In this document: positions 13,501 through 28,200 of the stretch, piece after piece | Numbering within the stretch: position 1 is the stretch's first letter | Layout: each line of letters begins with the position of its first letter | Assembly: GCA_040384445.1 (NCBI GenBank) | Contig: JAZKJG010000001.1 | Location: 7,650-71,649 of the forward strand | DNA: 64,000 nucleotides | Direction: 5' to 3' | Source: Patescibacteria group bacterium | Lineage (GTDB): Bacteria > Patescibacteriota > Minisyncoccia > Phycocordibacterales > CAIZLB01 | Translations under genes and position numbers: made by a program | Notes under the pieces: generated by a model | What the model was told of the DNA's origin: nothing | Databases searched by the model: none | Seen by the model: only the letters and a program-made list of their open reading frames with translations

Positions 13501-16500
13501 TTGCTTCAACAACACAATGGGCTACTGCATACGCTTCAACAACAGCACTTACTCCTGCATACTTCCGAGGGTTACTCTCTAACTCTGCAACTGGGTTAAC
13601 ATACAACTCAACAACAGGAGCAACATCATTCACTGCTGGATACTCAATACCTCTTACTGCATCATCAACTGAATGGTCATCATTCTTTAACACTCCATCA
13701 ACAAGAATTACAGCTGGATCAAATCTCACATGGTCTGGAAATACGTTGAATGCAAATATTTCAACATCATCAATCAACTACCTGCGACTGGTAAGTGGAG
13801 GTCTGGAAACTGCAACGTCAACAAACTTCTTGAGAGCTGCATATTTCACAGCGACAAGTACAACAGGAACGAGTACATTTGCAGGAGCTGTTGCAATCGG
13901 AACAACCACATCACCGTATAAACTTGCGGTTATTGGAGATTCGTATTTTTCAGGAAATATAAATGCATTTAGTTATGGTGCAGATGCGTATCATATTTTA
14001 GGTAGTAATCAGCACAATACAGTAACCATAAAGAAAGGTACTGGCTACGGTTCAGGTATTCATTTTGAAGATGGGTCTTCAAACCTATGGGATATATCAA
14101 CAGACAGTAGTAATAATTTTAGTATTTTTAACTACAGCCCTAGTGCAACAGCATTTGCAATAAATAAATCTAATAACTATGTAGGAATTGGAACTTCAAC
14201 TCCAATCTTCGCGTTGGATGTAGTTGGTGCAGCTGGGACTGTTATTCGAGCAAACAGTTCTGGCTCAACATATATTGATGCGAATACTGGAAGTGCTAGT
14301 TCAAATGGTGGATTTTCATTCAGTGCACTTGGAAGTAACAAATGGTTACTCTACAGAGATGGTGATGATGACTCTGTAAATTTTTTCAGTAATACTTTGG
14401 CTCAATCAGTACTAACTATGAATGCTGCTGGAAACGTAGGAATCGGAACAACAACCCCAACAGAAAAACTTTCTATAGCTGGAGCTCTTAATTTAACTGG
14501 CGCATTCAAATCAAACGGAAACGCAGGAACTCTAGGACAAGTATTACAAACAACTGGAACTGGAGTACAGTGGGTTGCAACATCATCACTTGGAATATCA
14601 GGCGGATCACTCTCAGGTGGAACTGATGGATATCTTGCACGATGGACAAGTGCGTCAACACTCAGTTCAGGACTATTCCTAGACAATGGAACAGTGGCAG
14701 GAATCAATGCGACATCTTCATCATATACATTTAATGTAAAAGGAAACTCAGGAGTAAATCCATTTAACGTCGCATCATCAACAGGTACGTCAATGTTTGC
14801 GATTGCAAATAACGGAAGAGTCACTGTGTACGGTGATATTGAAACAGATGATGATATATCAAACACCTTTCTTGGTGTCGGTGCCGGCAAGGGTTCAGTT
14901 CTAGATGGTGGTAGTAACACTGCAGTTGGTAGTGATGCTTTGTACACAAATACAGGAAGTTTTGGAGGTTACGGCTATGACAACACTGCGCTTGGTGCAT
15001 ATTCTCTCTACAGTCTCAATGCTGTAAGCGGAGGAAGTGGCTATGCAAACGTTGCTGTTGGTGTAAAGGCACTTTGGTTAAATGTACTTGGATCAGAAAA
15101 TGTTGCTTTGGGTACAAAAGCTCTTGAGGATATGACAGATGGCTATGGAAACATTGCGATCGGAAACAATGCTGGTAATAATCAAACACTTGGATCATAT
15201 AATATCGTTATCGGTAATGTTGTAAGTCTTGCAAGTACTACTGGAAGTAATCAACTTAATATCGGTAATCTTTTGTTTGGTACAGACTTGGGTACAGGAG
15301 GTGGAATTAGTACAGGAAATATTGGGATTGGGACAAATGCTCCTGCATACAGGCTCGACGTCAATGGTACAGGAAGATTTGTTAGAAGTAGTGTAGACGG
15401 TGCTTTGGTACTTGATAACTCGACGTCAGATGCTAATTCTATCCTGTTTCAAACTGCAGCATCAAATAAATGGTCTACTTACCTAAGTGGGAATGATTTA
15501 AGATTCTATGATTATAGTGGGAATGCTGACAGGCTTACTCTTAAATCAGGAGGTAATGTTGGAATTGGTACAACAACCCCAACAGAAAGGCTTTCAATCG
15601 CAGGTGCACTTAATCTCACAGGTGCATTTAAAGCAAATGGTGATGCAGGATCGGTAGGATATGTCATGATCTCACAAGGAACAAGTACTGCACCGATCTG
15701 GGTTGCAACTTCATCACTTGGATTAAGTGGTGGTGCAGGAGTTGGAACAATAAACTCTGGAACAGCTGGTCAAGTTGCGTTTTATGCAGGAAGTGGAACT
15801 ACAGTTTCTGGAACTTCAACACTATTCTTTAGTGCAGGAAATATTGGAATCGGAACTACAACTCCAGGATACAGACTTACTGTTGATGGAGATGTTTGGC
15901 TTGGAACCACAACACTTGCAAATGGTAATCTTGTTATAGGTAAGGATGGTTCTGTTACATCTCGAGGTCAAGCAGGATCAGTATTCTTAGGATTAGATGC
16001 AGGAAATGGGGCAACTTCTTCAAACAGCTCAAATTTCTTTGGTATATCTGCGGGTCAAAATGCAGCATATGCATCATACTCAAACTTCTTTGGTGAAGAA
16101 GCGGGATATGGTGCAACATATGCAACAAACTCAAACTTCTTCGGAGACTCTGCAGGATACGATGCAACAAACGCCGAAAGTGCAAACTTCTTTGGAAATG
16201 AAGCAGGGGTCAATGCAACTAACGCATTATTCTCAAACTTCTTTGGTGCAGCAGCAGGTTATGGTGCAACTGACGCAGCAAACTCAAACTTCTTTGGTAG
16301 ACAAGCCGGGTCTTATGCAACAGATGCATACAATGCTAACTTTTTTGGAGATTTCGCTGGTAGTGGTGCAACATATGCAACAAACTCAAACTTCTTCGGA
16401 GACTCTGCGGGATACGATGCAACATATGCTTACAATTCAAACTTCTTTGGTGAGCAAGCTGGATATGATGCAGAAAATGCATATGACTCAAACTTTCTTG

Positions 16501-19500
16501 GAAGTAGTGCGGGAGCTTATGCAGACAATGCATCATCATCAAACTTCATTGGAAATGATGCAGGAGCATATTCTATCAACGCAGCCTTCTCAAACTTCTT
16601 AGGGCAAAGCGCAGGGTACGATGCTGATAATGCATTTAACTCAAACTTCATCGGACGAGTTACAGGGTATCAAGCAACAAATGCGCGTGACTCAAACTTC
16701 ATGGGATATGGTGCGGGACAGAGTTCGACAAACGCCGCATTCTCAAACTTCTTTGGAAATAATGCAGGAGGAAATGCTCCAAATGCATCATACTCAAACT
16801 TCCTAGGAGTTAGTGCAGGAGGAAATGCAACAAACGCCGCAAACTCTAACTTTATTGGATATAGTGCAGGAGCAAGTGCTACAAACGCACCTTTCTCAAA
16901 CTTCATTGGATACAATGCAGGAAATAGTGCAACAAACGCATCAACTTCAAACTTTATTGGATATAACGCTGGTAACGCCGCAACAAACGCCGCCTTCTCA
17001 AACTTTATTGGAAATAATGCAGGATATGGTGCAACAAATGCTAATTTCTCGAACATGCAAGGATATAACGCTGGGTATGCTGCGACAGGCGCAGTTGCTT
17101 CAAACTTCTTTGGTTTATCAGCTGGAAGTTATGCAACAGGAGCACATAACGCAAACTTCATTGGAAATAGTGCAGGAGGTTCTGCAACATATGCAGCGTA
17201 TGGAAACTTCATTGGAGCAAACGCAGGAGTAAATGCAACAAATGGAGAATTCTCAACCTTCATTGGATATAACGCCGGTAATGCTGCAACAAACGCATCT
17301 TCATCAGTGTTTATTGGGTATGCAGCAGGACAATCAGCAACAAATGCAAGACAATCAAACTTCATTGGTAATGGTTCAGGTTATCTTGCAACAAATGCAA
17401 CATTGTCAAACTTCTTTGGAATCAATGCGGGAAATAGTGCAACAAACGCTTCGTCATCAAACTTCATAGGTTACGGAACAGGAGCAAGTGCAACAAATGC
17501 CGCATTCTCAAACTTTAGTGGACAAGATGCAGGAGCAAGTGCAACAAATGCATCATACTCAAACTTCTTTGGATCACAGGCTGGTCAACTTGCAACAAAC
17601 GCAGTGAATGCAAACTTCTTTGGACGACAAACAGGATTCCTCGCAACTGACGCGTATGATTCAAACTTCATAGGATATGGTGCTGGATATCTTGCTACAT
17701 ACGCATCATCGTCAAACTTCTTAGGAAGATCAGCAGGATCAGGAGCAACAAACGCTGCTTTCTCAAACTTCATTGGAAATAGTGCAGGAAATAGTGCAAC
17801 GGATGCTATATACTCAAACTTCTTTGGTGTTAATGCAGGAATTTTTGCCACTGGAGCTTCTAACTCAAACTTTATGGGATATAGTGCTGGACATACTGCA
17901 ACAAATGCATATCTTTCAAACTTCCTTGGAAGAGCTGCTGGATCTGGGGCAACATATGCAGCATATTCAAACTTCCTTGGATATAACGCAGGGTTAAATG
18001 CAACAAACGCTGAGTACTCTAACTTTATCGGTAACTCAGCTGGAGAAACTGCCACAAATGCATCTACTTCAAACTTCATTGGAAATAACGCTGGAAAACA
18101 AGCAACGAATGCGTTACTTTCAAACTTTATTGGAAATAGTGCCGGTTACCTTGCAACAAACGCTGCTCTTTCAAACTTTATTGGTAATGGAGCGGGAAAT
18201 AGTGCACCAAACGCAGCGATCTCAAACTTTATTGGATATAACGCAGGAAACGATGCAGACAACGCATCATCATCAAACTTCATCGGATTCCAGGCAGGTA
18301 TGCAGGCAACAAATGCATCATCATCAAACATTATAGGAACATATGCAGGATATCAATCAACTAACGCAGCATACTCAAACTTCATAGGATATGGAGCAGG
18401 ACAGTATGCGACAAATGCGCGTAACTCAAACTTTATCGGACTTGGAGCTGGAGGTGGAGGTGTAGGATCATATGATTCAAACTTCTTTGGTGTGAACGCA
18501 GGATCAAATACAAATTCATATAGATCAAACTTTATTGGATATAATGCAGGAACAGATTCACTAAATGCAACATCATCAAACTTCTTTGGAGAGTATGCTG
18601 GATATGATTCAGACAATGCTGCAAAATCAAACTTCATCGGACATTTTGCTGGGTATAATGCAACAAACGCAACTCGATCAAACTTCATTGGAGAACTTGC
18701 TGGGTTCCAAGCAACTAATGCAATCGACTCAAGCTTCATTGGTCGTCAGGCAGGAGAATATGCAACGAATGCTTCATCTTCAGTGTTTATCGGTCGAACT
18801 GCAGGTGCAAGTGCTGTCAACGCCGCCTTCTCAACATTCATCGGTAATGCAGCAGGAGATAGTGCAACCGGCGCTGATAATGCAATATTCATTGGTAATG
18901 CTCCAGGTTACGCTGCAACAAATACTTCAGATGTAATATTCTTAGGTCGAGCAACAGGACAGTATGCATACAATGCAAGTAACTCATTCTTTGCAGGATA
19001 TGCTGCTGGATACGGTGCAACAAACGCATCAATGATGAATGTTATCGGGTGGAATGCTGGAAATGGAGCTACAGATGCAACATTCTCAAACTTCATGGGA
19101 TACTCTGCAGGGTATGGTGCAACAAACGTATCGTTCTCAAACTTCTTCGGCGCAACTGCTGGATATGGAGCAACATATGCTTCACAATCAAACTTCTTTG
19201 GACAATACGCCGGGCAAAATGCTGTCAATGCAGGTGCTTCAAACTTCTTTGGAGGTGGAGCTGGAGATGGGGCTACAGATGCCGCGAGTTCAAACTTCTT
19301 TGGATTTAATGCAGGAGCATTGGCAACAGATGCATCATTCTCAAACTTCTTAGGACAGTATGCAGGAAAAGATGCAACATATGCTTCACTTTCAAACTTT
19401 ATAGGATTCAGTGCTGGAGAAGATGCAACAAACGCAACTCAATCAATCTTCATTGGGTCAAATGCAGGAAAAAATGCAGCGTTTGCAAACAGCTCTATAT

Positions 19501-21308
19501 TTATTGGGCAAGATGCTGGTTATAACGATACTGTAGATAACTCTTCGAACTATAAATCTTCGATCTTGATTGGAGATTATACATCAACTGGAGGTTTCTC
19601 AAACTCAATTGCTATTGGTCAAGGTACAAAAAACAGTGCGACTGAACAATTAAACTTAGGAGGATTGATTTATGGTTTGGGAATACGGGCAACAACAACA
19701 CCAACAGCGACACCTGTAGTTGGTGGTAAAGTTGGAATTGGAACTTCAACCCCGTCAACAACACTGGATGTATGGGGTAACTTCCAAGTTGGAACTTCTT
19801 CAACACCACTTATATTCGCAAACACTGCAACCGGACGACTTGGAGTTGGAACAAGTGCTCCAGGAGCGTTGCTTGATGTTGGAGGCATAGGAGCATCACC
19901 AACAGGATTCCCTGATATGGTTGCTGGATTTAGAGGAACTGCAAATAACTACATGACTGTTGAGATGCAGAACATAAGTGTTGGAGGAAGTGCAGCAACT
20001 GTATTGTTCCTAAGTGGAATTGGAGGAAGTAATGCAATATCTTTAGGTCAGTATGGTGCAGGAAATTCTGGCTTTACAGGAGGTATTAACAACTATGATG
20101 TATCATTCTTGACTGCTGTAGGTAGTCTTGCTCTGGGTTCAGGGGCTTCAAAAAACATACTGTTCAATATTGGAACAACAGAAGCGGCGCGATTTAACAC
20201 AAGTGGATTCTTAGGTTTAGGAACATCAACTCCATCAACAAGACTTGATGTATGGGGTAATTTCCAAGTTGGAACATCTTCAAATCCAATCATTTTCGCA
20301 AACAGTGGAACTGGACGACTTGGAGTTGGATCATCAACACCGATTGCAATGCTCGCAGTTAAAGGTACTGCAGGTGTAAACCCATTTGTTGTTGCTTCAT
20401 CAACTAACACTCAGATGTTTACGATTACACAAGCTGGAAGTGTGGGAATCGGAAGTTCAACACCAATCGCAACATTCTCACTTACAGGAGTTGGAGGAAC
20501 AAACCCAATCATGATTGCATCATCAACAAATGCCAATATGTTAAGTCTTACACAAACAGGTAGACTTGGGGTTGGTACTTCGAGTCCAGTGCAAAGTTTG
20601 GCTGTTGTAGGAACAATACATTCAACAGTCTTGAACGGAGGTGCAACAACTCTTTCAGTTGATGCAAACGGAAACATTATCAGAACTCCGTCTGATGCAA
20701 CTTTAAAAACACAAGTTGAAACATTAACAAATGCACTTGATAAAGTAAAACAACTTCGAGGTGTGAGTTACCGATGGATTGATACAGAAAGATTTGGTTC
20801 TGATCAAGATATAGGTTTGATTGCACAAGAAGTCGAAACTGTTGTTCCTGAAGTTGTAAAATCAGGAGGAGCATATAAGTCAGTTAACTATCCAAACCTT
20901 GTTGCACTATTAATAGAGGCAATGAAAGAGTTGAATACAAAAGTTGAAAAAATTGCAGCATGGTTTGGAGGAGATCGATTCGATGTACAAGGAGATATTT
21001 GTGTAGACGATGTATGTGTGACGAAAGAGCAATTCAAAGCAATGTTGATCCAAGCACAAAATGGAGGTTCAGGATCATCATACACACCACCAACTCCGGA
21101 TCCTACTCCAACACCTGATCCAACACCAGAACCTACAGATGGAGGAAGTGGTAGTGATGGAGAAGGGACTCCACCGTCTACTGAAGAAACTCCTGCACCA
21201 ACACCAACTCCGACACCTGAGTCAACTCCAGAGCCAACGCCTGAACCTGTTCCAGAACCATCACCAACACCGGCGCCTGAGCCTGCACCTACAGTGGCAG
21301 CAGAATAG
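7575..21308 (+). CDS. Giant secreted repeat protein (4577 aa). Signal peptide. Phage-tail-fibre-like modules. C-terminal intramolecular-chaperone/peptidase S74-like domain. Pro/Thr-rich tail.
   Basis: Single uninterrupted 13.7-kb ORF. N-terminal signal peptide (KLSPIAFLLIIGMFFGVYGNLFAAPA). Repeated VGIGTSTP...KL.V.G motifs. ~48-aa TASTTEW repeats. ~70 copies of a 17-aa SNF(F/I)G..AG..ATNA repeat. C-terminal SDATLKTQV...LRGVSYRW...GLIAQEVETVVPEVV...VNYPNLVALLIEAMKEL block. Confidence 0.9.
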   Translation: MKFPFLTKKLSPIAFLLIIGMFFGVYGNLFAAPATGSLGFQGQLFNNGTAVTGSVNATFTFYDAAIGGSAQGSTILKTVTVANGYFGTQFTESDTTGIDFNQELFIEVVVNGTALTPRSSVNSVPVARKAFGTFAYSSAPAVGEAGSLYFNTTSDTLLVSDGTSWVPAGTASSTTQWTTNGSDLYFTTGNVGIGTSTPADKLSVVGTVRATSFVGDGSQLTGIPVLSTSSVRSMFSSTATGLTYTAGTGVFSLAAGYVIPLTASTTEWAAAAASTTAMTPAYFRGLVSNSVAGLTYNPTTGATTLTAGYNIPLTASTTEWASAAASTSPSAIRGLFSNGATGLTYNSSTGATSLAAGYVIPLSASTTEWAAASASTTAMTPSYFRGLLSATGPISYNSSTGAFTFSTSSLGLTTTNIAEGSNQYFTDARARSALSESVTGLEYATSTGIFSLTSGYVIPTTASTSEWASAAASTTAMTPSYFRGLLSNSAAGLAYNSSTGATTLTAGYNIPLTASTTEWSQAYASTAPSVIRGLFSNSTTGLTYNSSTGATSLTAGYVISLTASTTEWATAYASTTAQTPAYFRGLLSNSVAGLTYNSSTGATTLTAGYNIPLSASSSEWALAYASTSAMTPVYTRGLFSNSTTGLTYNSGTGATSLTAGYVIPLVASTTEWAASSASTSPSAIRGLFSNGATGLTYNSSTGATSFTAGYSIPLTASSTEWSSFFNTPSTRITAGSNLSWAGNTLNAALSFSTSSINYLRNVSGGLETATSTDFLRAAYFTATGTTASTFTNASSTNLTITGSLYNSSLSNGCLEVSGGLVTSTGSNCGVGSGGITSLNGQTNSSQSFATSSTAGTFGFGFSSAGGIHTLNISLASSTNTGLLSASDWTTFNNKQGVLSFGNLTSSATGLSVTGGTGAVVGAGAAVTLAAGYSIPLSASTTEWSVAYASTTALTPAYFRALLSNSATGLTYNSGTGATSLTAGYVIPLVASTTEWAAVAASTTPSAIRGLFSNSATGLTYNSSTGATSFTAGYSIPLTASSTEWSSFFNTPSTRITAGSNLSWAGNTLNANISTSSINYLRLVSGGLEISTSTDFIRAAYFTATSTTVSTFAGAVAIGTTTSLAKFDVNAGSALHANAFNIYGVSTLGIGSVFGRISNTNTTGRTLFSLGETSGDTSTPFYIQRYGSTHATTPNLVEIGIATATGDMAFLTNSVERLRVTSSGNVGIGSSTPSATLGVAGSLNVTGAFRANGDAGTSGQIFQSTGSGASWISTSTLNILGTTTIRTLFSSTATGLTYTSGTGVFSLTAGYVIPLTASSSEWALAYASTSAMTPTYTRGLFSNSTTGLTYNSGTGATSLTAGYVIPLVASTTEWAASSASTSPSVIRSLFSNSAAGLTYSSTTGATTLTAGYSIPLTASSTEWSSFFNTPSTRITAGNNLSWTGNTLNASFSTSSVNYVRIVSGGLETATSTDFLRAAYFTATSTTGTSTFAGLVGIGTTTPSATLGVNGSINVTGAFRANGDAGTSGQIFQSTGSGASWISTSTLNILGTTTIRTLFSSTATGLTYTSGTGVFSLTAGYVIPLTASTTEWATAYASTTALTPAYFRGLLSNSATGLTYNSTTGATSFTAGYSIPLTASSTEWSSFFNTPSTRITAGSNLTWSGNTLNANISTSSINYLRLVSGGLETSTSTDFLRAAFFTATSTTATSTFAGYVGVGTSSPLAKLHVFGGTASPQVVVDSGSQNLDLYAAATTSNIDFSSILLFRSKTFANRGTNTGAVEYGRFDASGNFQVGTSTALGRVNIQGVNSSPTNAALSVYNSTGTNLLNVMNGGNVGIGSSTPSATLGVAGSLNVTGAFRANGDAGTSGQIFQSTGSGASWISTSTLNILGTTTIRTLFSSTATGLTYTSGTGVFSLTAGYVIPLVASSSEWSLAYASTSAMTPTYTRGLFSNSTTGLTYNSGTGATSLTAGYVIPLIASTTQWATAYASTTALTPAYFRGLLSNSATGLTYNSTTGATSFTAGYSIPLTASSTEWSSFFNTPSTRITAGSNLTWSGNTLNANISTSSINYLRLVSGGLETATSTNFLRAAYFTATSTTGTSTFAGAVAIGTTTSPYKLAVIGDSYFSGNINAFSYGADAYHILGSNQHNTVTIKKGTGYGSGIHFEDGSSNLWDISTDSSNNFSIFNYSPSATAFAINKSNNYVGIGTSTPIFALDVVGAAGTVIRANSSGSTYIDANTGSASSNGGFSFSALGSNKWLLYRDGDDDSVNFFSNTLAQSVLTMNAAGNVGIGTTTPTEKLSIAGALNLTGAFKSNGNAGTLGQVLQTTGTGVQWVATSSLGISGGSLSGGTDGYLARWTSASTLSSGLFLDNGTVAGINATSSSYTFNVKGNSGVNPFNVASSTGTSMFAIANNGRVTVYGDIETDDDISNTFLGVGAGKGSVLDGGSNTAVGSDALYTNTGSFGGYGYDNTALGAYSLYSLNAVSGGSGYANVAVGVKALWLNVLGSENVALGTKALEDMTDGYGNIAIGNNAGNNQTLGSYNIVIGNVVSLASTTGSNQLNIGNLLFGTDLGTGGGISTGNIGIGTNAPAYRLDVNGTGRFVRSSVDGALVLDNSTSDANSILFQTAASNKWSTYLSGNDLRFYDYSGNADRLTLKSGGNVGIGTTTPTERLSIAGALNLTGAFKANGDAGSVGYVMISQGTSTAPIWVATSSLGLSGGAGVGTINSGTAGQVAFYAGSGTTVSGTSTLFFSAGNIGIGTTTPGYRLTVDGDVWLGTTTLANGNLVIGKDGSVTSRGQAGSVFLGLDAGNGATSSNSSNFFGISAGQNAAYASYSNFFGEEAGYGATYATNSNFFGDSAGYDATNAESANFFGNEAGVNATNALFSNFFGAAAGYGATDAANSNFFGRQAGSYATDAYNANFFGDFAGSGATYATNSNFFGDSAGYDATYAYNSNFFGEQAGYDAENAYDSNFLGSSAGAYADNASSSNFIGNDAGAYSINAAFSNFLGQSAGYDADNAFNSNFIGRVTGYQATNARDSNFMGYGAGQSSTNAAFSNFFGNNAGGNAPNASYSNFLGVSAGGNATNAANSNFIGYSAGASATNAPFSNFIGYNAGNSATNASTSNFIGYNAGNAATNAAFSNFIGNNAGYGATNANFSNMQGYNAGYAATGAVASNFFGLSAGSYATGAHNANFIGNSAGGSATYAAYGNFIGANAGVNATNGEFSTFIGYNAGNAATNASSSVFIGYAAGQSATNARQSNFIGNGSGYLATNATLSNFFGINAGNSATNASSSNFIGYGTGASATNAAFSNFSGQDAGASATNASYSNFFGSQAGQLATNAVNANFFGRQTGFLATDAYDSNFIGYGAGYLATYASSSNFLGRSAGSGATNAAFSNFIGNSAGNSATDAIYSNFFGVNAGIFATGASNSNFMGYSAGHTATNAYLSNFLGRAAGSGATYAAYSNFLGYNAGLNATNAEYSNFIGNSAGETATNASTSNFIGNNAGKQATNALLSNFIGNSAGYLATNAALSNFIGNGAGNSAPNAAISNFIGYNAGNDADNASSSNFIGFQAGMQATNASSSNIIGTYAGYQSTNAAYSNFIGYGAGQYATNARNSNFIGLGAGGGGVGSYDSNFFGVNAGSNTNSYRSNFIGYNAGTDSLNATSSNFFGEYAGYDSDNAAKSNFIGHFAGYNATNATRSNFIGELAGFQATNAIDSSFIGRQAGEYATNASSSVFIGRTAGASAVNAAFSTFIGNAAGDSATGADNAIFIGNAPGYAATNTSDVIFLGRATGQYAYNASNSFFAGYAAGYGATNASMMNVIGWNAGNGATDATFSNFMGYSAGYGATNVSFSNFFGATAGYGATYASQSNFFGQYAGQNAVNAGASNFFGGGAGDGATDAASSNFFGFNAGALATDASFSNFLGQYAGKDATYASLSNFIGFSAGEDATNATQSIFIGSNAGKNAAFANSSIFIGQDAGYNDTVDNSSNYKSSILIGDYTSTGGFSNSIAIGQGTKNSATEQLNLGGLIYGLGIRATTTPTATPVVGGKVGIGTSTPSTTLDVWGNFQVGTSSTPLIFANTATGRLGVGTSAPGALLDVGGIGASPTGFPDMVAGFRGTANNYMTVEMQNISVGGSAATVLFLSGIGGSNAISLGQYGAGNSGFTGGINNYDVSFLTAVGSLALGSGASKNILFNIGTTEAARFNTSGFLGLGTSTPSTRLDVWGNFQVGTSSNPIIFANSGTGRLGVGSSTPIAMLAVKGTAGVNPFVVASSTNTQMFTITQAGSVGIGSSTPIATFSLTGVGGTNPIMIASSTNANMLSLTQTGRLGVGTSSPVQSLAVVGTIHSTVLNGGATTLSVDANGNIIRTPSDATLKTQVETLTNALDKVKQLRGVSYRWIDTERFGSDQDIGLIAQEVETVVPEVVKSGGAYKSVNYPNLVALLIEAMKELNTKVEKIAAWFGGDRFDVQGDICVDDVCVTKEQFKAMLIQAQNGGSGSSYTPPTPDPTPTPDPTPEPTDGGSGSDGEGTPPSTEETPAPTPTPTPESTPEPTPEPVPEPSPTPAPEPAPTVAAE
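8340..9760 (+). repeat. Intragenic tandem ~48-aa (~144-bp) repeats: IPLTASTTEW.A.AST......RGL.SN...GLTYNS.TGAT.LTAGY
   Basis: Direct reading of translation. Approximately 10 consecutive units. Additional dispersed copies at ~10380-10720, 11500-11860, 12300-12500, 13320-13700. Confidence 0.85.
11237..11700 (+). repeat. Long near-identical intragenic direct repeat, copy A (>95% nt identity to 13070-13510; partial copy at 12107-12310)
   Basis: By eye, the stretch ggaaatgttggaattggttcttcaactccatcagc...ggatatgt and the following ~200 nt recur almost base-for-base. Confidence 0.8.
13070..13510 (+). repeat. Long near-identical intragenic direct repeat, copy B
   Basis: See copy A. Only a handful of substitutions over >400 nt. 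Confidence 0.8.
16030..19520 (+). repeat. Array of ~70 degenerate 17-aa (51-bp) repeats SNF(F/I)G..AG..ATNA.. (coding, inside the giant gene)
   Basis: Strict 17-residue periodicity in translation with invariant N-F-x-G ... A-G ... A-T/x-N/x-A positions. Spurious ORFs in all other frames show the same periodicity. Confidence 0.9.
20688..20965 (+). other. Intramolecular chaperone / peptidase S74-like autoprocessing domain (protein domain inside giant gene 1)
   Basis: The motifs TPSDATLKTQVE, LRGVSYRWID, IGLIAQEVETVVPEVV and VNYPNLVALLIEAMKEL match hallmark blocks of the C-terminal chaperone domain of phage endosialidase/tail-spike proteins (SD.RLK.N cleavage motif; here SDATLK). Confidence 0.7.
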
Positions 21309-21378: not shown

Positions 21379-22029
21379 ATGACACCCTTACTTAAAAAAA
21401 GCATTACTTCATTTGTTTCAATTACACTATGTACTTTGAGTATATTTATAATCGCAGAACCTGCGATTATAAGTGCGGTTACAGATGATGTAGTTGTCAA
21501 CTTGACTGTTGATTCTGGGATCGCGATTACATCTCCTACCGATGTAACACTTGGATCATCTAACATGGGTGTGTCAGTAAACAGTGCTATTGGAACAGCT
21601 GTGTGGAACGTTAAAACAAACGATCCGGATGGATATTTGTTAACTATTAAAAATGCCTCAACTTCTCCAGCACTAAAGGGAGCTGGTGGAATTGGAAATT
21701 TTGCTGATTACACAGAAGCAGTTGCGAACACTCCTGAACTCTGGGCAGTGGATGCATCAACATATCAGTTTGGTTACTCAGTGAGGGGAACAGATGTGAA
21801 CACTGGTACATATGGATCAGGTGCAGATTGCGGAACAGGTAACACACCAAGTGGAACACTTAAGTATCGACATGCTTCAACAACTGCCATCACAGCAGCT
21901 ACGCGCTCGTCTACAACCACTACGGCTGGAATTGATACAACTGCTTGTTTCGCCGCAGGGCAGAACGGTGTGTATGCAGCCGCAGGTTCATATAGTGCTA
22001 CAATTACAGCAACAGCTACAACACTCTAG
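21379..22029 (+). CDS. Secreted WxL-domain-like surface protein (216 aa)
   Basis: Signal peptide. N-terminal NLTVDSG...VTLG segment (like the LSLDSVP..FDFG block of WxL proteins). WNVKTNDPDGYLLTIK (like V.DNRG..GW.L.V). C-terminal GSYSATITATATTL (like the ..Y.G.ITW.L.. tail). Paralogue of 23075-23824. Confidence 0.6.
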   Translation: MTPLLKKSITSFVSITLCTLSIFIIAEPAIISAVTDDVVVNLTVDSGIAITSPTDVTLGSSNMGVSVNSAIGTAVWNVKTNDPDGYLLTIKNASTSPALKGAGGIGNFADYTEAVANTPELWAVDASTYQFGYSVRGTDVNTGTYGSGADCGTGNTPSGTLKYRHASTTAITAATRSSTTTTAGIDTTACFAAGQNGVYAAAGSYSATITATATTL

Positions 22030-22077
22030 GAAGTGTGCAAGTAAACTGTATATTTCTAAATTTAATCCCAAGATAAT

Positions 22078-23046
22078 ATGAGTCACGTAACGCACATGCT
22101 AAAAAAAAATATTATCAGAGGATTGCTCCTGTGTATAATCATTTTCTCGTCCCAGGCACATGCTGAGGTTGTGAGAACACAACTCAATGTAGATGATACA
22201 AATGACTTTGTTGTTGAACCTGGAAAAACTGAAATATACTTAAATCCTGGGGAATCAATTAAGAAAAGTGTTTCAATAACAAATAGACAAAATAAAAAAG
22301 TTTCGTACTCGATTAAGATCGAAGATTTTGTTGGAACAGAAGACCCAAATAATCCAATTAAACTATTAGGAGAGGAGGCTGGACCGTATTCTCTTAAAAA
22401 TCTTGTAGTTCCTGAATTGGCAGAGTTTACTTTAAATTTTGGGGAACGAATTGTTATACCAATAGAAGTAAATATACCCGTAACAGCAGAACCTCGTGGA
22501 TATTACGGGGCAATAGTTGTATCTAATCAACCAGAAATCGACGATCAAGTTTCAGGGAACTCTGGAGCAGAGGGAAAAACTAGACTCATTTCTAGAATTG
22601 GTTCGCTTTTGCTTGTGAGAGTGAATGGGTTAGGGGAGGAATCAGGAAAGCTTGAAGATTTAAAACTGTTAGGACCTTCAAAATTATTTTATGAAAAAAA
22701 ACCAGCAGGGTTTGAAATATTGTTTAGAAATGATGGAAATGTGCACCTTGTCCCAAGTGGAAAAATTTCTATCACGAATATTATAGGAAAAAAAGTTGCA
22801 GAGCTTCCTGTTGATGCATATTTTGCACTTCCGGATTCTTTGCGATACAGAGAAATCCAGTGGCAAGAAGGATTTGGATTTGGAAGATATAAAGCTAATC
22901 TTTCATTGTATAGGGGGTATGGAAATCAATTCGATGAAGATTCGGTTGTGTTCTGGGTTTTGCCTTGGAAATTATTACTTGCAATATTTGTTATAATTTG
23001 TTTTATATATTATATTTCAAGGAAATTTGAATTTAAAAGAAAGTAA
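22078..23046 (+). CDS. DUF916/DUF3324-like (CscA-like) cell-surface protein, signal peptide + C-terminal TM anchor with basic tail (322 aa)
   Basis: Signal peptide LLLCIIIFSSQAHA. Beta-rich body. C-terminal WVLPWKLLLAIFVIICFIYYISRKFEFKRK anchor. Position between two WxL-like genes matches the csc-type cluster layout. Confidence 0.5.
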   Translation: MSHVTHMLKKNIIRGLLLCIIIFSSQAHAEVVRTQLNVDDTNDFVVEPGKTEIYLNPGESIKKSVSITNRQNKKVSYSIKIEDFVGTEDPNNPIKLLGEEAGPYSLKNLVVPELAEFTLNFGERIVIPIEVNIPVTAEPRGYYGAIVVSNQPEIDDQVSGNSGAEGKTRLISRIGSLLLVRVNGLGEESGKLEDLKLLGPSKLFYEKKPAGFEILFRNDGNVHLVPSGKISITNIIGKKVAELPVDAYFALPDSLRYREIQWQEGFGFGRYKANLSLYRGYGNQFDEDSVVFWVLPWKLLLAIFVIICFIYYISRKFEFKRK

Positions 23047-23074
23047 TTTTGAATTTGTAACATATTAATAATCC

Positions 23075-23824
23075 ATGACACATCGTCATTTTCACAGTTT
23101 CATAATGATACTTCTGACTTTTGTTCCTATCTATGCAATAGGACAAGTGATGCAGAGTACTGTGTACAAGATTGAATCTGACAGTATTAATTTTGGAGGA
23201 GGAAATTCATCAAGTACAAGCTATAGTCTAGAAGATACCTTGGGTGAAATTGCTTCAGGGTATAGTTCGAGTTCTTCTTATGTGATGAATGCAGGCTATC
23301 AACACATGAATGAGTCCACATACATAACTCTAAGTGCTTTGAGCGATTTAAATCTTGGAACAATTGGAGGGTTCGTAGGAGGTGTTGCAACAGGAACTCA
23401 TTCGTGGGTGGTTACTACAAATAACCCTGAAGGATACACACTCACCGCCAAAGCATCAACAGCGCCAGCTCTCACATCTGGTGCGGCATCTTTTGGTGAC
23501 TACGTTCCCGCTGGACCTGACCCTGATCTAAACTTTACAGTTTCTGCAACGAGTTCAAAGTTCGGATTTTCACCTGAAGGTGTGGATGTTGTGCAAAGAT
23601 TTAAGGATAATGGATCGTCATGTAATGCAGGAACATCAAACACAACCGATGCATGTTGGGATGGATTTTCAACTACAACAAAATCTGTATCATTAAGAAA
23701 TTCAAGTAATTTACCATCAGGTTCAACAACGACTATAAAATACCGTGCAGAAATCGGAGCCTCATATTTTCAGGATGCAGGTGATTATTCTGCAATTATA
23801 ACAATTACCGCGCTTGCACTATAA
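23075..23824 (+). CDS. Secreted WxL-domain-like surface protein, second paralogue (249 aa)
   Basis: Signal peptide. ITLSALSDLNLGTIGG. WVVTTNNPEGYTLTAK. C-terminal GDYSAIITITALAL. Alignable with 21379-22029 over the full length. Confidence 0.6.
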   Translation: MTHRHFHSFIMILLTFVPIYAIGQVMQSTVYKIESDSINFGGGNSSSTSYSLEDTLGEIASGYSSSSSYVMNAGYQHMNESTYITLSALSDLNLGTIGGFVGGVATGTHSWVVTTNNPEGYTLTAKASTAPALTSGAASFGDYVPAGPDPDLNFTVSATSSKFGFSPEGVDVVQRFKDNGSSCNAGTSNTTDACWDGFSTTTKSVSLRNSSNLPSGSTTTIKYRAEIGASYFQDAGDYSAIITITALAL

Positions 23825-25182
23825 TGAAAAAAAATGTATTCACGCATGTAAAAATCTTAACTTTAACTAGTATGTGTGTTATGGGTTTAGGTTTGCATGC
23901 GGATATAGATGTTAATTTAATGGTCGAAGGTTGCAATAATGATACTGTGTGTGAAATTCAGTACGGTGAAAGTTTTAATTCATGTCCAAACGATTGTGCC
24001 TATGTTGCGCCAACATCAACTCCTCCAACGCCAGTCACTCCACTGCCATCTGCTGATTCTTCTGGAATACTATTTGGAACTAAGGGTGACACAACATTGC
24101 GATTTGAAAATGTTCATATTACGCACGGACTTGATTCTGCTGTTTTAACATGGAATACGACACGTCCCACTAAGTCATCAATCAGTTGGGGACTGACAGA
24201 TGATTACGCTGAAGGTGTGCTGTCGGAAATTGAATTCATCAAAACACATTCATCAAAAATTAATAATATTATTCCAGGAAAAATATATGTATTTAAAATT
24301 ACGGCAGTAGATGCAGACGGAGTTTATGTAACATATTCTGGAAACTTTTTACTTAAAAAAGAAACCCCTGTACTCTTGCCACTAAACGTTGCTGATTTTA
24401 GAATTTTTACTGCTCCAACAGGAATTGGACTCAGGTGGAATAATGTAAGTGATTTAGAATATGAATATGTACGAATTATTAGGTCCACAACAGGATATCC
24501 TCATAATCCATCAGATGGAAAAGTTGTATATGAGGGTAAGGGACAAAGCTTTGTAGATATAAATGTGCTTGAGGGGGTAAGATATTATTATGCTGCGTTT
24601 GTTCGAAATCAATCCTCACAATATTCTTCAGGAGTTTTAAGGACAGTAATAAAATATAAAAACGGAATCACTCCACTTGATTCTGATGTTGGTTTTCCAT
24701 TTGAAAATGATAATCAGATAGATACTGCAATTCCGTCAAATGTATTCCAACTCACACATCAAGATATAGATTTTATTCAAAATAATACAAAGATCTCTTT
24801 CATATCTTCAGTCGTCCCTGTAAATTCAAGTATTCCGCTAATTGTAAGTGTTCCTAAATTTAATAATTCAGTAGTGTTTTTGACAATGACCTCAAGTGAT
24901 CAGACATATTTATTTGCATACAATGTTAGCGATGATAGATTAGAGGTGCAAATTCCATCCTTGCACACAGATAATTCTATTGAATATTTTCTGTATATAT
25001 TAAATGATGGTACTTTCTATAAGCTTAATCAAGGAACATTCGACCTGTCTCCATCTGTCGATTATACCGACACGAGAAATGGCAAAAAAAGAGCTCAAAA
25101 CCTTAAAGATTTTCTTATAATTATACCTATTGCTGTTTTTTTGATTGCGATTAAATTGATTTATAGAATTTTTAAAAAATAA
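23824..25182 (+). CDS. Surface protein with Cys-rich N-terminal module, Pro/Thr linker, two FN3-like domains and C-terminal TM anchor (452 aa)
   Basis: Signal peptide. CNNDTVCEIQYGESFNSCPNDC. PTSTPPTPVTPLP linker. Two ~90-aa segments with FN3-like W..T and Y.Y.A patterns. Terminal FLIIIPIAVFLIAIKLIYRIFKK. Confidence 0.6.
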   Translation: MKKNVFTHVKILTLTSMCVMGLGLHADIDVNLMVEGCNNDTVCEIQYGESFNSCPNDCAYVAPTSTPPTPVTPLPSADSSGILFGTKGDTTLRFENVHITHGLDSAVLTWNTTRPTKSSISWGLTDDYAEGVLSEIEFIKTHSSKINNIIPGKIYVFKITAVDADGVYVTYSGNFLLKKETPVLLPLNVADFRIFTAPTGIGLRWNNVSDLEYEYVRIIRSTTGYPHNPSDGKVVYEGKGQSFVDINVLEGVRYYYAAFVRNQSSQYSSGVLRTVIKYKNGITPLDSDVGFPFENDNQIDTAIPSNVFQLTHQDIDFIQNNTKISFISSVVPVNSSIPLIVSVPKFNNSVVFLTMTSSDQTYLFAYNVSDDRLEVQIPSLHTDNSIEYFLYILNDGTFYKLNQGTFDLSPSVDYTDTRNGKKRAQNLKDFLIIIPIAVFLIAIKLIYRIFKK

Positions 25183-25270: not shown

Positions 25271-28200
25271 ATGGGTACATTTATCATAAAGCACGTTCAG
25301 AAAAACTGTAAAAAGTTTTTAAAAACTTTCCTTATCTTAGGATTGTTTTTAATGTGTTTTACTGCATATAGTGTGGTATATGCTGCGTTTAATCCTCAGA
25401 TAAATTACCAGGGAAAACTTACAGATGCTTCAGGTAACCCTGTTGCAAATGGAACATACAATATTGAATTTAAATTGTATACAGTTTCAAGTGGTGGAAG
25501 TCCTATTTGGACAGAAACAAGAACTGGAGGAGATAAGGTTACAATTACAAATGGACTGTTCAGTGTGATGCTTGGAAGTGTAAATTCAATTTCAGGAATT
25601 GATTTTAATCAACCATTATATCTAGGGGTAAATATTGGAGGAACAGGTTCACCATCTTATGACGGTGAAATGACTCCTCGAAAAACTTTCGGTACTGTAC
25701 CTGCATCATTTGTTGCACAGACACTTGAAGGATATCGAGCGATTCAATTTTTGCGAAGTGATGTTATAAATTCAACAAGTACAGGAGCTACGTTTTTAAA
25801 ACTTGAGCAAGCTGGAGCTGGAGCGATTGCAGAATTTATTGGAAATACTTCATCAACAATTCTTGGAATATATTCTGCAGGAGGTGGAGCTGTTGGAATT
25901 GGAACAACAACTCCAACAGAGAAGCTTACTATTGCAAATGGAAATTTGTTACTACAAGGAGAATACGGTGTGAAATGGACAGGAGGTTCTCAACTGTACG
26001 AACAAACTGTTGCAGGGGCTGGAGTTGATAGAATGATTTATCGACCTAATGGAGATCGATTTGATGTTATCGATGAAGCCGGTTCAACGTTCATGGCATC
26101 ATTCAATGTAAGTAATATACAGTTGTTTACTGCAGGTGTTTCAAGATTGTTTATTGATTCTTCAGGAAACCTTGGTATTGGAACTACGACCCAAACAGAA
26201 AAACTCACAATCGCAGGAAACATCAACCTCACCGGTGCATTCAAATCAAACGGAAACGCCGGAACACTGGGACAAGTATTACAAACAACAGGAACTGGGG
26301 TGCAATGGGTTGCAACATCAACTCTTGGAATATCAGGCGGATCACTCTCAGGTGGAACTAATGGGTATCTATCACGATGGACAAGTTCCTCAACTTTGAG
26401 TACGGGATTATTTCTAGACAATGGAACTGTAGCGGGAATTAACGCAACATCTTCATCATACACATTTAATGTAAAAGGATCAGGAGCGCTCGGTGCCTTC
26501 AATGTTGCGTCGTCGACTGGTACTTCGCTCCTCAACGTGAGGGCGAATGGGTATGTAGGAATCGGAACAAACGCTGCTGCATATCAGCTGGATGTAAAAG
26601 CTGATACTTCTGGCATTACTAACGTACTGAACCTAAGTAGTTCTATGACAGGGGCTGGAGATGGTACAGGAATTCTATTCTCTAGTTCTGAGGGAAGTCT
26701 ACATGCGCGTATACGAACCAGTGCCTATACAGGTACAACAGCAGGTTTAATATTCGAAGTAACCCCTTCAACTGATACCTTAACTGAAGCACTGCGTATC
26801 ACAGATACTGGAAATGTAGGAATCGGAACAACAACTCCATCTGCAAAACTAGATGTATGGGGAAATTTGAAAGTAGGAACATCATCAACACCAATTTTGT
26901 TTGCAAACACAGCAACAGGAAAAGTTGGTATTGGAACAGTATCGCCAGCGCATACATTAGATTTGGGAGGAGTAAGTCCGACTTTAAATGTTGGGTTATA
27001 CGGAGGGGGAGGTGCTGCAACTATTCGTATGTTGGGGGAAGCATTGTTTAGTTTCTCTGGTGGAACAGTCGGATCAACTATTGCAATAGGCTCTGCTGAT
27101 ACTTCTGTTGATTTTGACCTTGCGTTCCATGCAGGAGGATCGAACAGAATGTATATAGATGGGGCGACTGGTAATGTTGGAATCGGAACAACAACATCAG
27201 TAGAACTTCTCACAATTGCAGGAAATCTCAACCTCACAGGTGCACTCAAATCAAACGGAAATGCAGGAACTCTCGGACAAATATTACAAACAACAGGAAC
27301 CGGAGTACAATGGGTTGCTACATCATCATTAGGTATTTCAGGTGGAGGAGGATCGGGAACTGTAAACTCTGGACTTCTTGGTCAAGTTGCTTTTTATAGT
27401 GCAAATGGAACAGCGGTTTCAGGAACTTCAACATTGTTTATCACTGGTGAAAAGATTGGAGTTGGAACAACGACTGTAACAGAAAAATTAGTAGTCGATG
27501 GAAATGCTCTTATTACAGGATTACTAAAAGGTGGTACTTCTGCAAATATTAATTTAAATGGACTGTCTAATAACGGTGTAGATTTTAACTATTTAAATGG
27601 AGGTATATTTCGTACTGCAGAAACAAGTATTGCAGGAACAAATGATATATTCTTCCAAGGAGTTCCTGCTACTACTGCTGGATATACCTATCTTGAAGCA
27701 TGGCAATCTGCTGGTTTGATTTTAGGAACGGGAAATTCAACTGCAATTATTTTCAAACCAAACAGAACTGAATACATGCGACTTACTGGAACTGGTGATT
27801 TGGGAATTGGGACATCTACTCCAATTGCAAAACTTGCAGTTACAGGAACAGGAACAACAACAGGTAAAGCTTTCGTTGTTGCAAACTCAAACAATACTCC
27901 GATATTCACAATGCTTGATAATGGAAATATTGGAAATGGTGTAGGCGCTGACCCTGTATCATGGGATTTCCATATACAAAGAACTGGAAATTTGTACGCA
28001 ACCCTACAAAGTTCAACAGGACATTCTACCCTTCGTCTTGTGAGTGCCACAGGGTTGAGCCCCACTCTTCATTTTGGTGACGGGTCAAGTAATCGATGGG
28101 ACGTTGTTTCAAATGGTTCAAACTCAGGAAACCTTGAGTTTAATTCATATTCTGTAGGAAATGTAATGAGTCTAGGTTTGACAACTGGACTTGTAGGAAT

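Follow-up and report, generated by a model that had tools for sequence, protein, structure and literature searches.

The C-terminal end of a giant open reading frame (ORF) of 4577 aa (7575..21308, + strand), lying in a 64,000-nt stretch of a Patescibacteria chromosome (the window), encodes an S74 intramolecular chaperone domain with an intact Ser-Lys dyad. By sequence comparison, the extension that follows is a conserved two-part add-on, consisting of a cysteine-containing module (Cys module) and a low-complexity acidic tail. This combination is an undescribed variant add-on to S74. We propose that the product of the ORF is a precursor, exported by Sec, that would mature into a very long, homotrimeric surface fibre of a CPR bacterium; the chaperone, the Cys module and the tail would be cut off after trimerisation, none of them serving as an anchor. 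We assign this reading a probability of roughly 0.55.

Positions 20688..21308 translate in frame into P4372-SDATLK...AAE*, the end of the giant ORF. The four motifs quoted in a preliminary description of this region (SDATLK, LRGVSYRW, GLIAQEVETVVPEVV and NYPNLVALLIEAMKEL) were all found in the translation, and the S74-like domain proposed there was confirmed by several searches. Pfam PF13884 (Peptidase_S74) matched aa 4373-4429 over the full profile (positions 1-58 of 58), with 61.5 bits against a cutoff of 22 and an E value of 9e-17, far beyond chance. A profile search of PDB sequences retrieved tail fibres, the MyRF ICA, an L-shaped fibre of T5 type and the appendage of GA-1, in each case with the Ser and Lys aligned; SDATLK fell opposite SDERLK, SDRRIK and SDERHK in tail-fibre and appendage chains of known structure. 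The AF2 model had pLDDT values of 90-97 across the S74 part, with a long helix at H112-134 (model numbering). With this model, Foldseek returned 7dc3 MyRF ICA (E 3e-6), the endoNF chaperone 3gw6 and 3gud of GA-1, as well as 325 viral proteins (tail-fibre models) at E <= 1e-3. On these profile and model matches, aa 4373-4461 (20691..20957, +) is an S74 intramolecular-chaperone domain, with a core made of an alpha/beta part and a 23-residue helix. Public annotation had already flagged the S74 part; source records of family members read 'tail fiber domain-containing protein' or 'Chaperone of endosialidase'.

The catalytic motif, S4373-D-A-T-L-K4378 (20691..20708, +), contains the putative dyad. 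Ser4373 and Lys4378 (alignment columns S46 and K51) were unchanged in all 36 aligned relatives, divergent 'SLRxTK' variants included. The scissile bond is predicted at P4372|S4373 from two precedents, the Ser1264/Lys1269 dyad of T5 pb1, which has a 133-aa chaperone (PMC4690869), and S782 of Bd3182, a fibre of chromosomal bacterial origin in which the S782A mutation stops processing (PMC10769870).

The stretch after the dyad is unusually long. Among the 118 closest S74 relatives, a median of 97 residues follows the Ser and only six have more than 140, against 204 in the giant ORF. Beyond the Pfam model, 148 residues remain; if the chaperone is taken to close with its long helix, at aa 4461, the number is 116, and with that boundary the earlier figure of about 115 is right. 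The extension had been called atypical, which holds for its length. It is not a peculiarity of a single gene, since the profile of the Cys module matched at least 355 cluster representatives (50 % identity clusters) at E <= 1e-3 and 120 at E <= 1e-10.

The Cys module covers aa 4462-4497 (WFGGDRFDVQGDICVDDVCVTKEQFKAMLIQAQNGG; 20958..21065, +) and is predicted to form short strands, a beta-hairpin with C4476 and C4481, and one helix. In the single-chain AF2 model, the strands (148-150 and 153-155) and the helix (157-168) had pLDDT values of about 85, and the two Cys residues sat on neighbouring hairpin strands immediately after the long helix. The 36-residue consensus is WF..RF.V.G.ICVDDVCVTKEQFK..L, with W, F, C, D, C, F and K as its unchanged positions. 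An HMM built from the module set gave 78 bits on the giant ORF and matched nothing else in the window, and no match covering the module was found in Pfam, NCBIfam or PDB. S74 was detectable in 131 of 146 module-bearing sequences, lying upstream at a modal distance of about 105 residues (125 sequences scored by HMM); the spacing from the S74 serine to the module was almost always close to this value. The remaining 15 were mostly N-terminally truncated fragments or divergent S-x4-K variants recognised by eye, and only P0218, P0241 and P0220 stood as module carriers without a detectable S74. In this set, the module is tightly coupled to S74 and not to any anchor, and its co-occurrence with S74 at a nearly constant spacing suggests that the extension is functionally part of the chaperone. 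Of the 64 members with 1000 aa or more, 11 have no cysteines other than those of the module; the giant ORF has four in its 4577 residues, 53 % of which are Ser, Thr, Ala or Gly. All organism-named carriers of the module and tail are CPR bacteria. Scanning 2.9 million IMG/VR viral contigs with two Cys-motif patterns did not find the motif. The scan gave four relatives only, all matching just the S74 part, and L011, the one that was translated, stops directly after the helix. The module thus appears not to be of phage origin.

The tail occupies aa 4498-4577 (21066..21305, +) and ends in ...PAPTVAAE, the true C-terminus. It is Pro/Thr-rich, as described earlier, with 27 Pro, 16 Thr, 10 Glu and 8 Ser and neither Lys nor Arg among the last 79 residues. 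Its PTPDPTP stretch had been taken for a linker; that stretch is the C-terminus itself and joins nothing. No secondary structure was assigned to the tail in the AF2 model. Across the family, the tails are hypervariable in sequence, with a median length of 83 aa, 0.4 % K+R and 21 % D+E. The final residue was Glu in 52 of 139 tails (18.7 expected) and the terminus -PTE in 13 (0.45 expected). The counts of -E, -TE and -PTE were reached in 0 of 2000 shuffles, a test that ignores sequence relatedness.

The rest of the giant ORF probably encodes a secreted fibre, judging from a single N-terminal hydrophobic segment, a shared N-terminal domain and a pair of S74 and non-S74 paralogues. The sole hydrophobic 19-residue window in the 4577 residues fell within aa 5-35, in a predicted Sec-type signal peptide (aa 1-33; 7575..7673, +) whose boundary, MKFPFLTKKLSPIAFLLIIGMFFGVYGNLFA|AP, was placed by eye. 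A beta-sandwich domain follows (aa 34-130; 7674..7964, +), and after it a 'GSLYFN...LxVSDGTSW' motif. This domain is common to both giant paralogues and to family members, and homologues with a matching signal peptide and N-terminal domain support the start of the ORF. Units of about 50 aa (TGLTYNSSTGATSLTAGYVIPLTASTTEW...) inside super-repeats of 270-380 aa then make up a repeat region (8269..13832, +; direct-repeat families D3-D7, 60-96 % DNA identity), and the protein autocorrelation peaked at lags of about 52, 101, 199 and 352 residues. About 70 tandem 17-residue repeats, SNF[FI]GxxAGxxATNAxx, occupy aa 2802-3990 (15978..19544, +). In the register listing, their spacing was exactly 17 aa in 63 of 66 cases; at the DNA level they form a 51-nt unit in 68 copies of 60-70 % identity, and the region had no sequence match in Pfam or PDB. 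Residues 3991-4372 (19545..20690, +) are predicted to form the stalk at the distal end of the mature fibre, or its tip; they have repeated (N)VGIGTSTPxxxLxV motifs and end in ...VDANGNIIRTP. Together with S74, their profile weakly matched the Bdellovibrio Bd3182 stalk in PDB (8ojn/8onb/8onc, E 5e-4).

A second giant ORF (2482 aa; 25271..32719, +) shares the N-terminal domain and the 17-aa repeats and lacks S74. BLASTP aligned it at 50-57 % identity with aa 2530-4066 of the first ORF, a stretch that takes in the 17-aa repeat region. It had no Pfam match and is recorded at NCBI as a 'hypothetical protein' (MES2985513.1). Between the two giants lie four secreted or membrane-anchored ORFs (21379..25182, +), in a layout that agrees with the CPR Pam pilus operon (bioRxiv 10.64898/2026.03.03.709456). 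The ORF at 23075..23824 matched NCBIfam NF058579 CPR_pilus_PamT at E 1.6e-9, under the equivalog cutoff, and the ORF at 21379 is its paralogue (36 % identity, E 1e-17). Both the ORF at 22078 and that at 23824 have a signal peptide and, in the C-terminal part, a hydrophobic stretch with a basic end that was taken by eye for a transmembrane helix; the latter ORF also gave a non-significant fn3 hint (E 0.079).

The preliminary description had suggested that the released fragment might be anchored or retained, and this part of it found no support, while the domain, the dyad and the long extension did. The hydrophobicity profile of all 4577 residues showed no transmembrane segment after S74, and neither Pfam nor NCBIfam detected a sorting signal, of LPXTG type or otherwise, or a domain that binds the wall. 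The proposal is thus unsupported, because no known anchor was found. Retention by non-covalent means, in which the precursor C-terminus or the released chaperone trimer is kept on the envelope by the Cys module and the acidic tail, through divalent-cation bridges to wall polymers or an unknown receptor, and the S74 cut frees the fibre or leaves a functional cap, seems unlikely to us. It would explain why so many clusters keep the add-on, whereas a discarded chaperone needs no extra parts, and the K/R-poor acidic tails with their non-random ends would fit it, with the reservation on relatedness given above. The non-S74 paralogue likewise has a PT-rich acidic tail, ending in -PAPTE, and in MYRF an S74-type chaperone domain lies upstream of a membrane anchor and cleavage parts the two halves (PMC3742443, PMC3742440). 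However, the hypervariability of the tails fits a spacer rather than a ligand, and the module is tied to S74 and not to other fibre termini, its HMM giving no match on the paralogue. By analogy with the MAT fibres of Bdellovibrio, the N-terminal domain is also the likelier cell-proximal end.

Still less probable is that S74 only trimerises the chains and does not cleave, the chaperone, Cys module and tail staying as the distal end of the mature fibre. The PT-rich tail, perhaps glycosylated, would then belong to the host-contact surface. Low-complexity, hypervariable tails rich in Pro, Thr and Ser resemble the O-glycosylated mucin-type linkers of other proteins, hypervariability would suit a surface under diversifying selection, and the Cys module is kept beyond the apparent need of a throw-away piece. 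Against this, the invariance of both dyad residues is expected only if catalysis is selected. The SDxxxK S74 proteins tested so far, T5 pb1 (PMC4690869) and Bd3182 (PMC10769870), all self-cleave, and in T5 a retained chaperone blocks receptor binding (PMC4690869).

The description of the protein as chromosomal was correct. The giant ORF sits on a 314,435-bp contig of a Patescibacteria MAG, close behind rpoB (13..2433) and rpoC (2470..6159) and ahead of RF, CTP synthase, TsaD and gyrA. That the region is a tail-fibre gene of a prophage, or the ORF an error of assembly or gene calling, is very improbable despite the S74 family being best known from phages and the gene being highly repetitive: no phage genes occur in the 64-kb window, GC in the gene (0.41-0.43) is close to that of the rest of the window (0.34-0.43), orthologues occupy other chromosomal settings in CPR MAGs (in L002 and L008, for example, with gatB and gap on either side), the Cys motif was missing from the viral contigs scanned, and the divergence of the internal repeats argues against a repeat-collapse artefact.

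In the cleavage model that we favour, the S74 chaperone would register three chains after export and template the folding of the preceding stalk. The Cys module, with its C-x4-C hairpin and helix, might act as a disulfide-stapled, foldon-like clamp that prolongs the helical bundle of the chaperone and, outside the cell, helps to nucleate the trimer or to lock it. Many close S74 relatives manage with 82-100 residues beyond the Ser and lack the module, so S74 can function without such a clamp. The polyanionic, disordered tail of about 80 residues may improve solubility, act as a spacer or ease export. When the trimer has formed correctly, Lys4378 would activate Ser4373 to cut its own chain, leaving a mature fibre of about aa 34-4372 with the N-terminal beta-sandwich near the cell and a new distal tip exposed. 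The 205-residue fragment would be set free; clamp and tail would have acted before cleavage and would depart with the chaperone, neither being a membrane or cell-wall anchor. Phage tail fibres and Bdellovibrio MAT fibres share this building plan, and in the MAT family an S74 and a non-S74 paralogue adjoin, as the two giants do here. Against this model, the conservation of the module and the non-random C-terminus suggest that the fragment may have a separate role once it is free, and P0218 and P0241 carry the module with no detectable S74.

The open reading frame at 7575..21308 (+) encodes a giant protein of 4577 residues, and the S74-like domain proposed in the preliminary description lies in frame at its end, at 20688..21308. 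Peptidase_S74 (PF13884, 'chaperone of endosialidase') was the sole Pfam family in the entire protein. It matched residues 4373-4429 at a score of 61.5 bits (cutoff 22 bits, E 9e-17), and the alignment spanned the complete profile, positions 1-58 of 58. The motifs quoted earlier were all there, in the order P4372-SDATLK...LRGVSYRW...GLIAQEVETVVPEVV...NYPNLVALLIEAMKEL, followed by the Pro/Thr-rich end and the stop codon. The Ser-Lys dyad of the S-D-x-x-x-K motif stands at the domain start as S4373-DATL-K4378. An alignment of 36 family members served for dyad conservation, for a profile search of PDB sequences and for structure prediction. Both dyad residues were invariant in all 36 members, and divergent subfamilies ('SLRxTK', 'SSEALK') retained S-x4-K. 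The 36-member profile matched 8jov, a putative tail fibre (2e-17), and 7dc3, the MyRF ICA domain (4e-11), as well as 6f45 (long tail fibre distal subunit), 8hqz (L-shaped tail fibre assembly chain) and 3gud (GA-1 neck appendage chaperone). The Ser and Lys of the giant lined up with SDERLK, SDRRIK and SDERHK of the solved chains. The first residue of the 3gud chain is exactly the aligned Ser, the site of cleavage.

The AlphaFold2 model of residues 4328-4577, a monomer model, contained the chaperone fold, with an α/β part and a long helix, at pLDDT 90-97 over the S74 domain. The chaperone closed with a 23-residue helix at residues 4439-4461. The best Foldseek matches in the PDB were 7dc3 (E 3e-6), the endoNF chaperone 3gw6 and GA-1 3gud. 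In addition, 325 predicted viral tail-fibre proteins matched the model at E <= 1e-3. Pfam, PDB profile, fold and dyad agreed with one another, and the domain very probably works as an S74 chaperone of a secreted fibre. In the tail fibre pb1 of phage T5, Ser1264, activated by Lys1269, cuts only once the triple β-helix is in place, and is released as part of the 133-residue chaperone (PMC4690869). Such processing was also shown for the chromosomal bacterial fibre Bd3182, in which the S782A substitution blocks it (PMC10769870). By analogy with these homologues, the giant would cleave itself between P4372 and S4373.

The rest of the giant has the arrangement of a long, exported, repetitive fibre. 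A signal-peptide-like N-terminus (residues 5-35) is followed by a β-sandwich domain (residues 34-130), which occurs also in family members; a homologue search with this domain returned 2 matches only. After the N-terminal domain come repeats of about 50 residues within larger super-repeats. About 70 tandem repeats of 17 residues, SNF[FI]GxxAGxxATNAxx, then run in exact register from 15978 to 19544 (+), residues 2802-3990, with a 51-nt DNA unit of 60-70 % identity. These 17-residue repeats had no Pfam or PDB sequence match, and may form a β-solenoid or β-roll fibre shaft of an undescribed repeat class. Between these repeats and the predicted cleavage site lies a stalk in which (N)VGIGTSTPxxxL motifs abound. 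The DNA repeats of the gene have diverged (60-96 % identity), and homologues share both the signal peptide and the N-terminal domain; the reading frame is therefore neither an artefact of repeat collapse nor the product of a wrong start.

The part of the giant that follows the chaperone is unusually long. It has 204 residues after the Ser, while the 118 closest SDxxxK S74 relatives have a median of 97 (range 82-236), with more than 140 in only 6 of them. The domain is thus not at the extreme C-terminus, a position that is typical of the phage proteins and not strictly defining, as the MYRF case illustrates. The preliminary description had called this location atypical and had counted about 115 residues after the domain. 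The comparison with the relatives supports the former, and the count is correct because the model ends the chaperone with the helix at residues 4439-4461, leaving 116 residues.

This extension has two parts. The first is a 36-residue Cys module (residues 4462-4497, 20958..21065), W4463-F-GGDRFDVQGDI-C4476-VDDV-C4481-VTKEQFKAMLIQAQNGG, in which W, F, C, D, C, F and K are invariant in the family alignment. It was modeled as short strands and one helix, with a hairpin that places both cysteines on facing strands (pLDDT about 85). The second is an acidic tail of 79-80 residues (residues 4498-4577, 21066..21305) with no predicted structure. It contains 27 Pro, 16 Thr, 10 Glu and 8 Ser, with no Lys or Arg and no F, W, L, I, M or C, and terminates in ...PEPAPTVAAE. 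There are just 4 cysteines among the 4577 residues of the giant. The other two, at residues 813 and 828 (10011..10058), lie 15 apart in a unique stretch between repeat blocks (SNGCLEVSGGLVTSTGSNCGVG), and might pair to give a second disulfide loop.

The Cys module is not represented by any entry of Pfam, NCBIfam or the PDB. When 1.84 billion cluster representatives were searched exhaustively by HMMER with a module-only profile, 355 proteins matched at E <= 1e-3, 120 of them at E <= 1e-10; a word-indexed homologue search with the same profile gave 4 fragments only. Among the 150 matches listed (up to 2564 residues long), the module generally lay within about 170 residues of the C-terminus. An S74 domain was detected by our own HMM in 125 of 146 module-bearing sequences, at a modal distance of about 105 residues upstream of the module, and Pfam found a divergent S74 in 6 more. 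The remainder were mostly N-terminally truncated fragments, or S-x4-K variants as judged by eye. In only three proteins of the 146 (P0218, P0241 and P0220) could no S74 be detected alongside the module. These are perhaps fragments, or a sign of independent use of the module. P0220 has two module copies within an Arg-rich, possibly mistranslated sequence. For P0241 we suspected a Peptidase_G2-type chaperone before the module, and Pfam found none. The tight coupling to S74 speaks for the module as a chaperone accessory.

Rather than being peculiar to one gene, the module marks a whole family. Its two cysteines were the only cysteines of the protein in 11 of the 64 members with at least 1000 residues. 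All module bearers with an organism label belonged to the CPR (Kaiserbacteria, Paceibacterota, Taylorbacteria, 'Saccharibacteria' MAGs and Patescibacteria group). When the two best-conserved patterns of the Cys motif were run against 2.9 million viral contigs of IMG/VR, neither the module nor the acidic tail turned up. The scan yielded 4 relatives, all sharing the S74 part only, and the single viral locus translated among them (L011) ends directly after the chaperone helix. In one module-bearing relative (ENA contig locus L008, 4812..10909) the gene is called as two genes, of 1713 and 302 residues, in different frames. The fibre sequence runs on across the junction, which was read in L008; the same layout occurs in L009 and L010, and the 302-residue product is listed on 24 contigs. 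The split in L008 reflects either a frameshift or an assembly error.

The tails that follow the module cannot be aligned across the family, and share a composition. Their median length is 83 residues, with 66 % T+S+P+E+D, 21 % D+E, 0.4 % K+R and 5 % hydrophobic residues. The last residue was E in 52 of 139 tails (18.7 expected), and the ends TE and PTE were found 24 and 13 times against 2.8 and 0.45 expected. None of 2000 shuffles, which treat the sequences as unrelated and leave kinship uncontrolled, reached the observed counts. This biased -E/-TE/-PTE end may be a terminal recognition feature. A Paceibacterota relative (L004, 587..1666) has the same S74 core and 'AAWF' and then, in place of the CVDDVC module, another kind of insert with Cys (GIILYDEDTGKPYCLTIVSGQVRTRSGNC) and a poly-Glu tail. 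Because this insert differs from the CVDDVC module, at least two kinds of add-on occur at this position. Two further related proteins (P0010 and P0008) have a cysteine-free coiled coil and an acidic tail there.

The preliminary description had suggested that the released fragment might be anchored or retained, and for this we found no positive support. Outside residues 5-35, no 19-residue window of the 4577-residue protein had a mean Kyte-Doolittle value above 1.6; hence there is no transmembrane helix after the chaperone, and the signal peptide is the only hydrophobic segment. We found no sortase-type (LPXTG) or other C-terminal sorting signal, and the end has neither a hydrophobic stretch nor Lys or Arg. 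NCBIfam, which includes models of C-terminal sorting signals, gave nothing but noise at E <= 1, and neither Pfam nor NCBIfam detected a wall-binding domain in the giant. What speaks for retention is the biased tail ends (-E, -TE, -PTE) and the example of MYRF, in which the S74-type domain precedes a C-terminal half that is retained. As for a trimeric autotransporter adhesin, Pfam found no YadA, Hep_Hag or anchor domain in the 4577-residue protein; one relative (P0243) had a sub-threshold YadA_head match (E 1.8e-4).

The phage CIMCDs (endoNF 3GW6, T5 pb1 and GA-1 3GUD) have in common with the giant the Pfam family, the SDxxxK motif at the domain start, the fold, and the position of the chaperone at the C-terminal end of a long repetitive fibre. 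The chaperone core of the giant is compact, however, with about 90 residues compared with 133 in T5 pb1, and is followed by the 36-residue Cys module and the 80-residue acidic tail. Unlike the phage proteins, the giant is a chromosomal bacterial protein exported by Sec, and therefore its folding must occur outside the cytoplasm. MYRF gave the best fold match (E 3e-6), and also has its S74-type domain away from the extreme C-terminus. Cleavage of MYRF separates the N-terminal trimer from the C-terminal remainder. That remainder consists of a transmembrane helix and a large luminal region, whereas that of the giant consists of the 36-residue Cys module and a soluble acidic tail without a hydrophobic segment. 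A further comparison is with the foldon of T4 fibritin, a trimerization unit of about 30 residues that forms a β-hairpin directly after a helical trimer at the fibre C-terminus. The foldon is cysteine-free and is not removed. The Cys module is likened to it by its proposed role; the two have no sequence relationship, and the trimeric arrangement of the module is only proposed.

A second giant of 2482 residues (NCBI MES2985513.1, 'hypothetical') is encoded 4 kb downstream, at 25271..32719 (+). It is a paralogue of the S74 giant. The N-terminal domains of the two are 33 % identical (E 2e-9), and the 17-residue repeats recur in the second giant at about 28900..31100. The repeat regions are 50-57 % identical over about 1500 residues, near-identical stretches included. 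Pfam found no S74 in the second giant, so that S74 and non-S74 paralogues occur together in one genome, as in the MAT family. Toward its C-terminus, a region of globular appearance and a helix precede the C-x8-C stretch MCLKKSDGSEYCVNGDELQSIM, and the protein closes with an acidic, PT-rich tail whose last residues are -PAPTE. We considered MCLKKSDGSEYCVNGDELQSIM as a divergent Cys module and rejected it: the module HMM was silent, phmmer found no relatives, and the resemblance is visual only.

The closest bacterial counterpart is the MAT family of Bdellovibrio, to which Bd3182 belongs. That family comprises 13 S74 and 8 non-S74 members with variable tips (PMC10769870); their N-terminal domain is invariable, and its presumed place is the surface of the predator. 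The giant resembles these fibres in being chromosomal and in having a signal-peptide-like N-terminus and then a conserved β-rich domain, a candidate counterpart of the one in the MAT fibres. Both are also long fibres that end in S74 with SDxxxK, both come from an organism that lives by attaching to other cells, and both have S74 and non-S74 paralogues within one genome. The pair of giants mirrors the MAT family in this respect. At the sequence level, we found a weak match to the Bd3182 stalk (8ojn/8onb, E 5e-4). There are clear differences as well. The giant is about 4-5 times longer than the MAT fibres described there (4577 versus about 1000 residues), and its repeats, with 17-residue and about 50-residue units, differ from theirs. 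Scaled in proportion to Bd3182 (922 residues, about 550 Å), the fibre would measure roughly 0.25-0.3 µm. The giant comes from a CPR bacterium, whereas the MAT fibres come from a diderm predator. The CPR are generally taken to lack an outer membrane. For the MAT fibres, the passages of PMC10769870 considered here make no mention of a Cys module or tail beyond S74.

The gene for the giant is chromosomal. Immediately upstream lie rpoB and rpoC, and downstream are genes for RF, CTP synthase, an ECF sigma factor, ABC exporters, TsaD and gyrA. RpoC, GyrA and the neighboring proteins are encoded on one 314,435-bp contig of a Patescibacteria MAG, whereas an exact-sequence query with the giant itself matched no record. 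The GC content is 0.41-0.43 in the giant gene and 0.34-0.43 elsewhere in the window. We found no tRNA genes in the 64-kb window, and no phage gene among the open reading frames scanned. A promoter and terminator scan of the 70-nt gap 3' of the giant gave counts at chance level and no terminator. The CTP synthase frame (36400..38412, +) comprises 670 residues when translated mechanically; its Pfam match, by contrast, sets in at residue 120, and the protein recorded at NCBI has 567 residues. Translation probably begins some 100 codons after the first start codon.

Four genes directly downstream of the S74 fibre gene, at 21379..25182 (+), resemble a small pam pilus operon of the CPR type. Two of them (21379..22029 and 23075..23824, +) are pilin-like paralogues with 36 % identity to each other. 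The latter matched the NCBIfam model CPR_pilus_PamT ('CPR-type pilus protein PamT') with E 1.6e-9, under the equivalog cutoff. Two other proteins encoded between the giants have a signal peptide and, by eye, a C-terminal transmembrane helix. One, of 322 residues, is like the PamC/D chaperones, and the other, of 452 residues, is like PamR and has a non-significant hint of FnIII (E 0.079). A pam operon layout as among these four genes was described in a 2026 preprint, which reports that a 'tail fibre-like protein' co-localizes with pam operons in CPR genomes and offers no analysis of that protein (bioRxiv 10.64898/2026.03.03.709456). In the 14 other loci fetched, 10 of them from CPR (L001-L004, L006 and L008-L010 included), the fibre genes had no pam-like genes in their vicinity. 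Because these loci are without pam-like genes, the link between fibre and pam is not general in this sample.

Taken together, the observations suggest the following course of assembly, to which we assign a probability of roughly 0.55 as a whole. The chains would be exported via Sec, and the C-terminal chaperone would align three of them in register outside the cell. Folding of the stalk would then proceed from the C-terminus, and Ser4373 would cleave the bond between P4372 and S4373. Export, stalk folding and cleavage have strong homology to tested systems. The 205-residue fragment, of about 21 kDa, would finally depart, exposing the mature fibre tip to bind a host cell; for this uncultivated organism, surface location and binding of prey or host are suggested by the architecture only. 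We propose tentatively, at less than even odds, a specific role for the add-on. The disulfide-stapled hairpin and helix might extend the chaperone as a foldon-type clamp, and the acidic tail devoid of Lys and Arg might hold this end soluble and off the envelope. A more far-reaching proposal seems to us unlikely. It takes the C-x4-C hairpin module and the polyanionic tail, free of Lys and Arg and biased toward -PTE, as a new CPR-specific assembly or targeting device for extracellular trimerization without a periplasm. Such a device might also keep the released cap, or the uncleaved fibre, docked on the envelope, and the fibre and the adjacent Pam-type pilus would together form a host-attachment apparatus of episymbionts.

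That S74 occurs on chromosomal bacterial fibres is already known from the Bdellovibrio MAT work, and pipelines already annotate relatives of the giant as 'tail fiber domain-containing protein' or 'Chaperone of endosialidase'. In our literature search, no paper linked the CPR to S74 or to intramolecular chaperones, and a giant-gene preprint makes no mention of S74. The new part is the Cys module, which is without a database family; together with the acidic tail it provides a simple searchable signature for this class of fibres. If the module is a portable trimerization clamp, it could find use in protein engineering. The extension also raises the question of how a phage chaperone, normally cytoplasmic, was adapted to fold a 4500-residue trimer extracellularly. 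The CPR, or Patescibacteria, are thought to live attached to other microbes, and little is known of the means of attachment. At this locus of a small genome, a fibre gene of 13.7 kb, whose product carries a chaperone of the self-cleaving phage type, is joined by a paralogue lacking S74 and by a probable Pam pilus operon. These three elements follow the logic of the prey-recognition fibres of Bdellovibrio.
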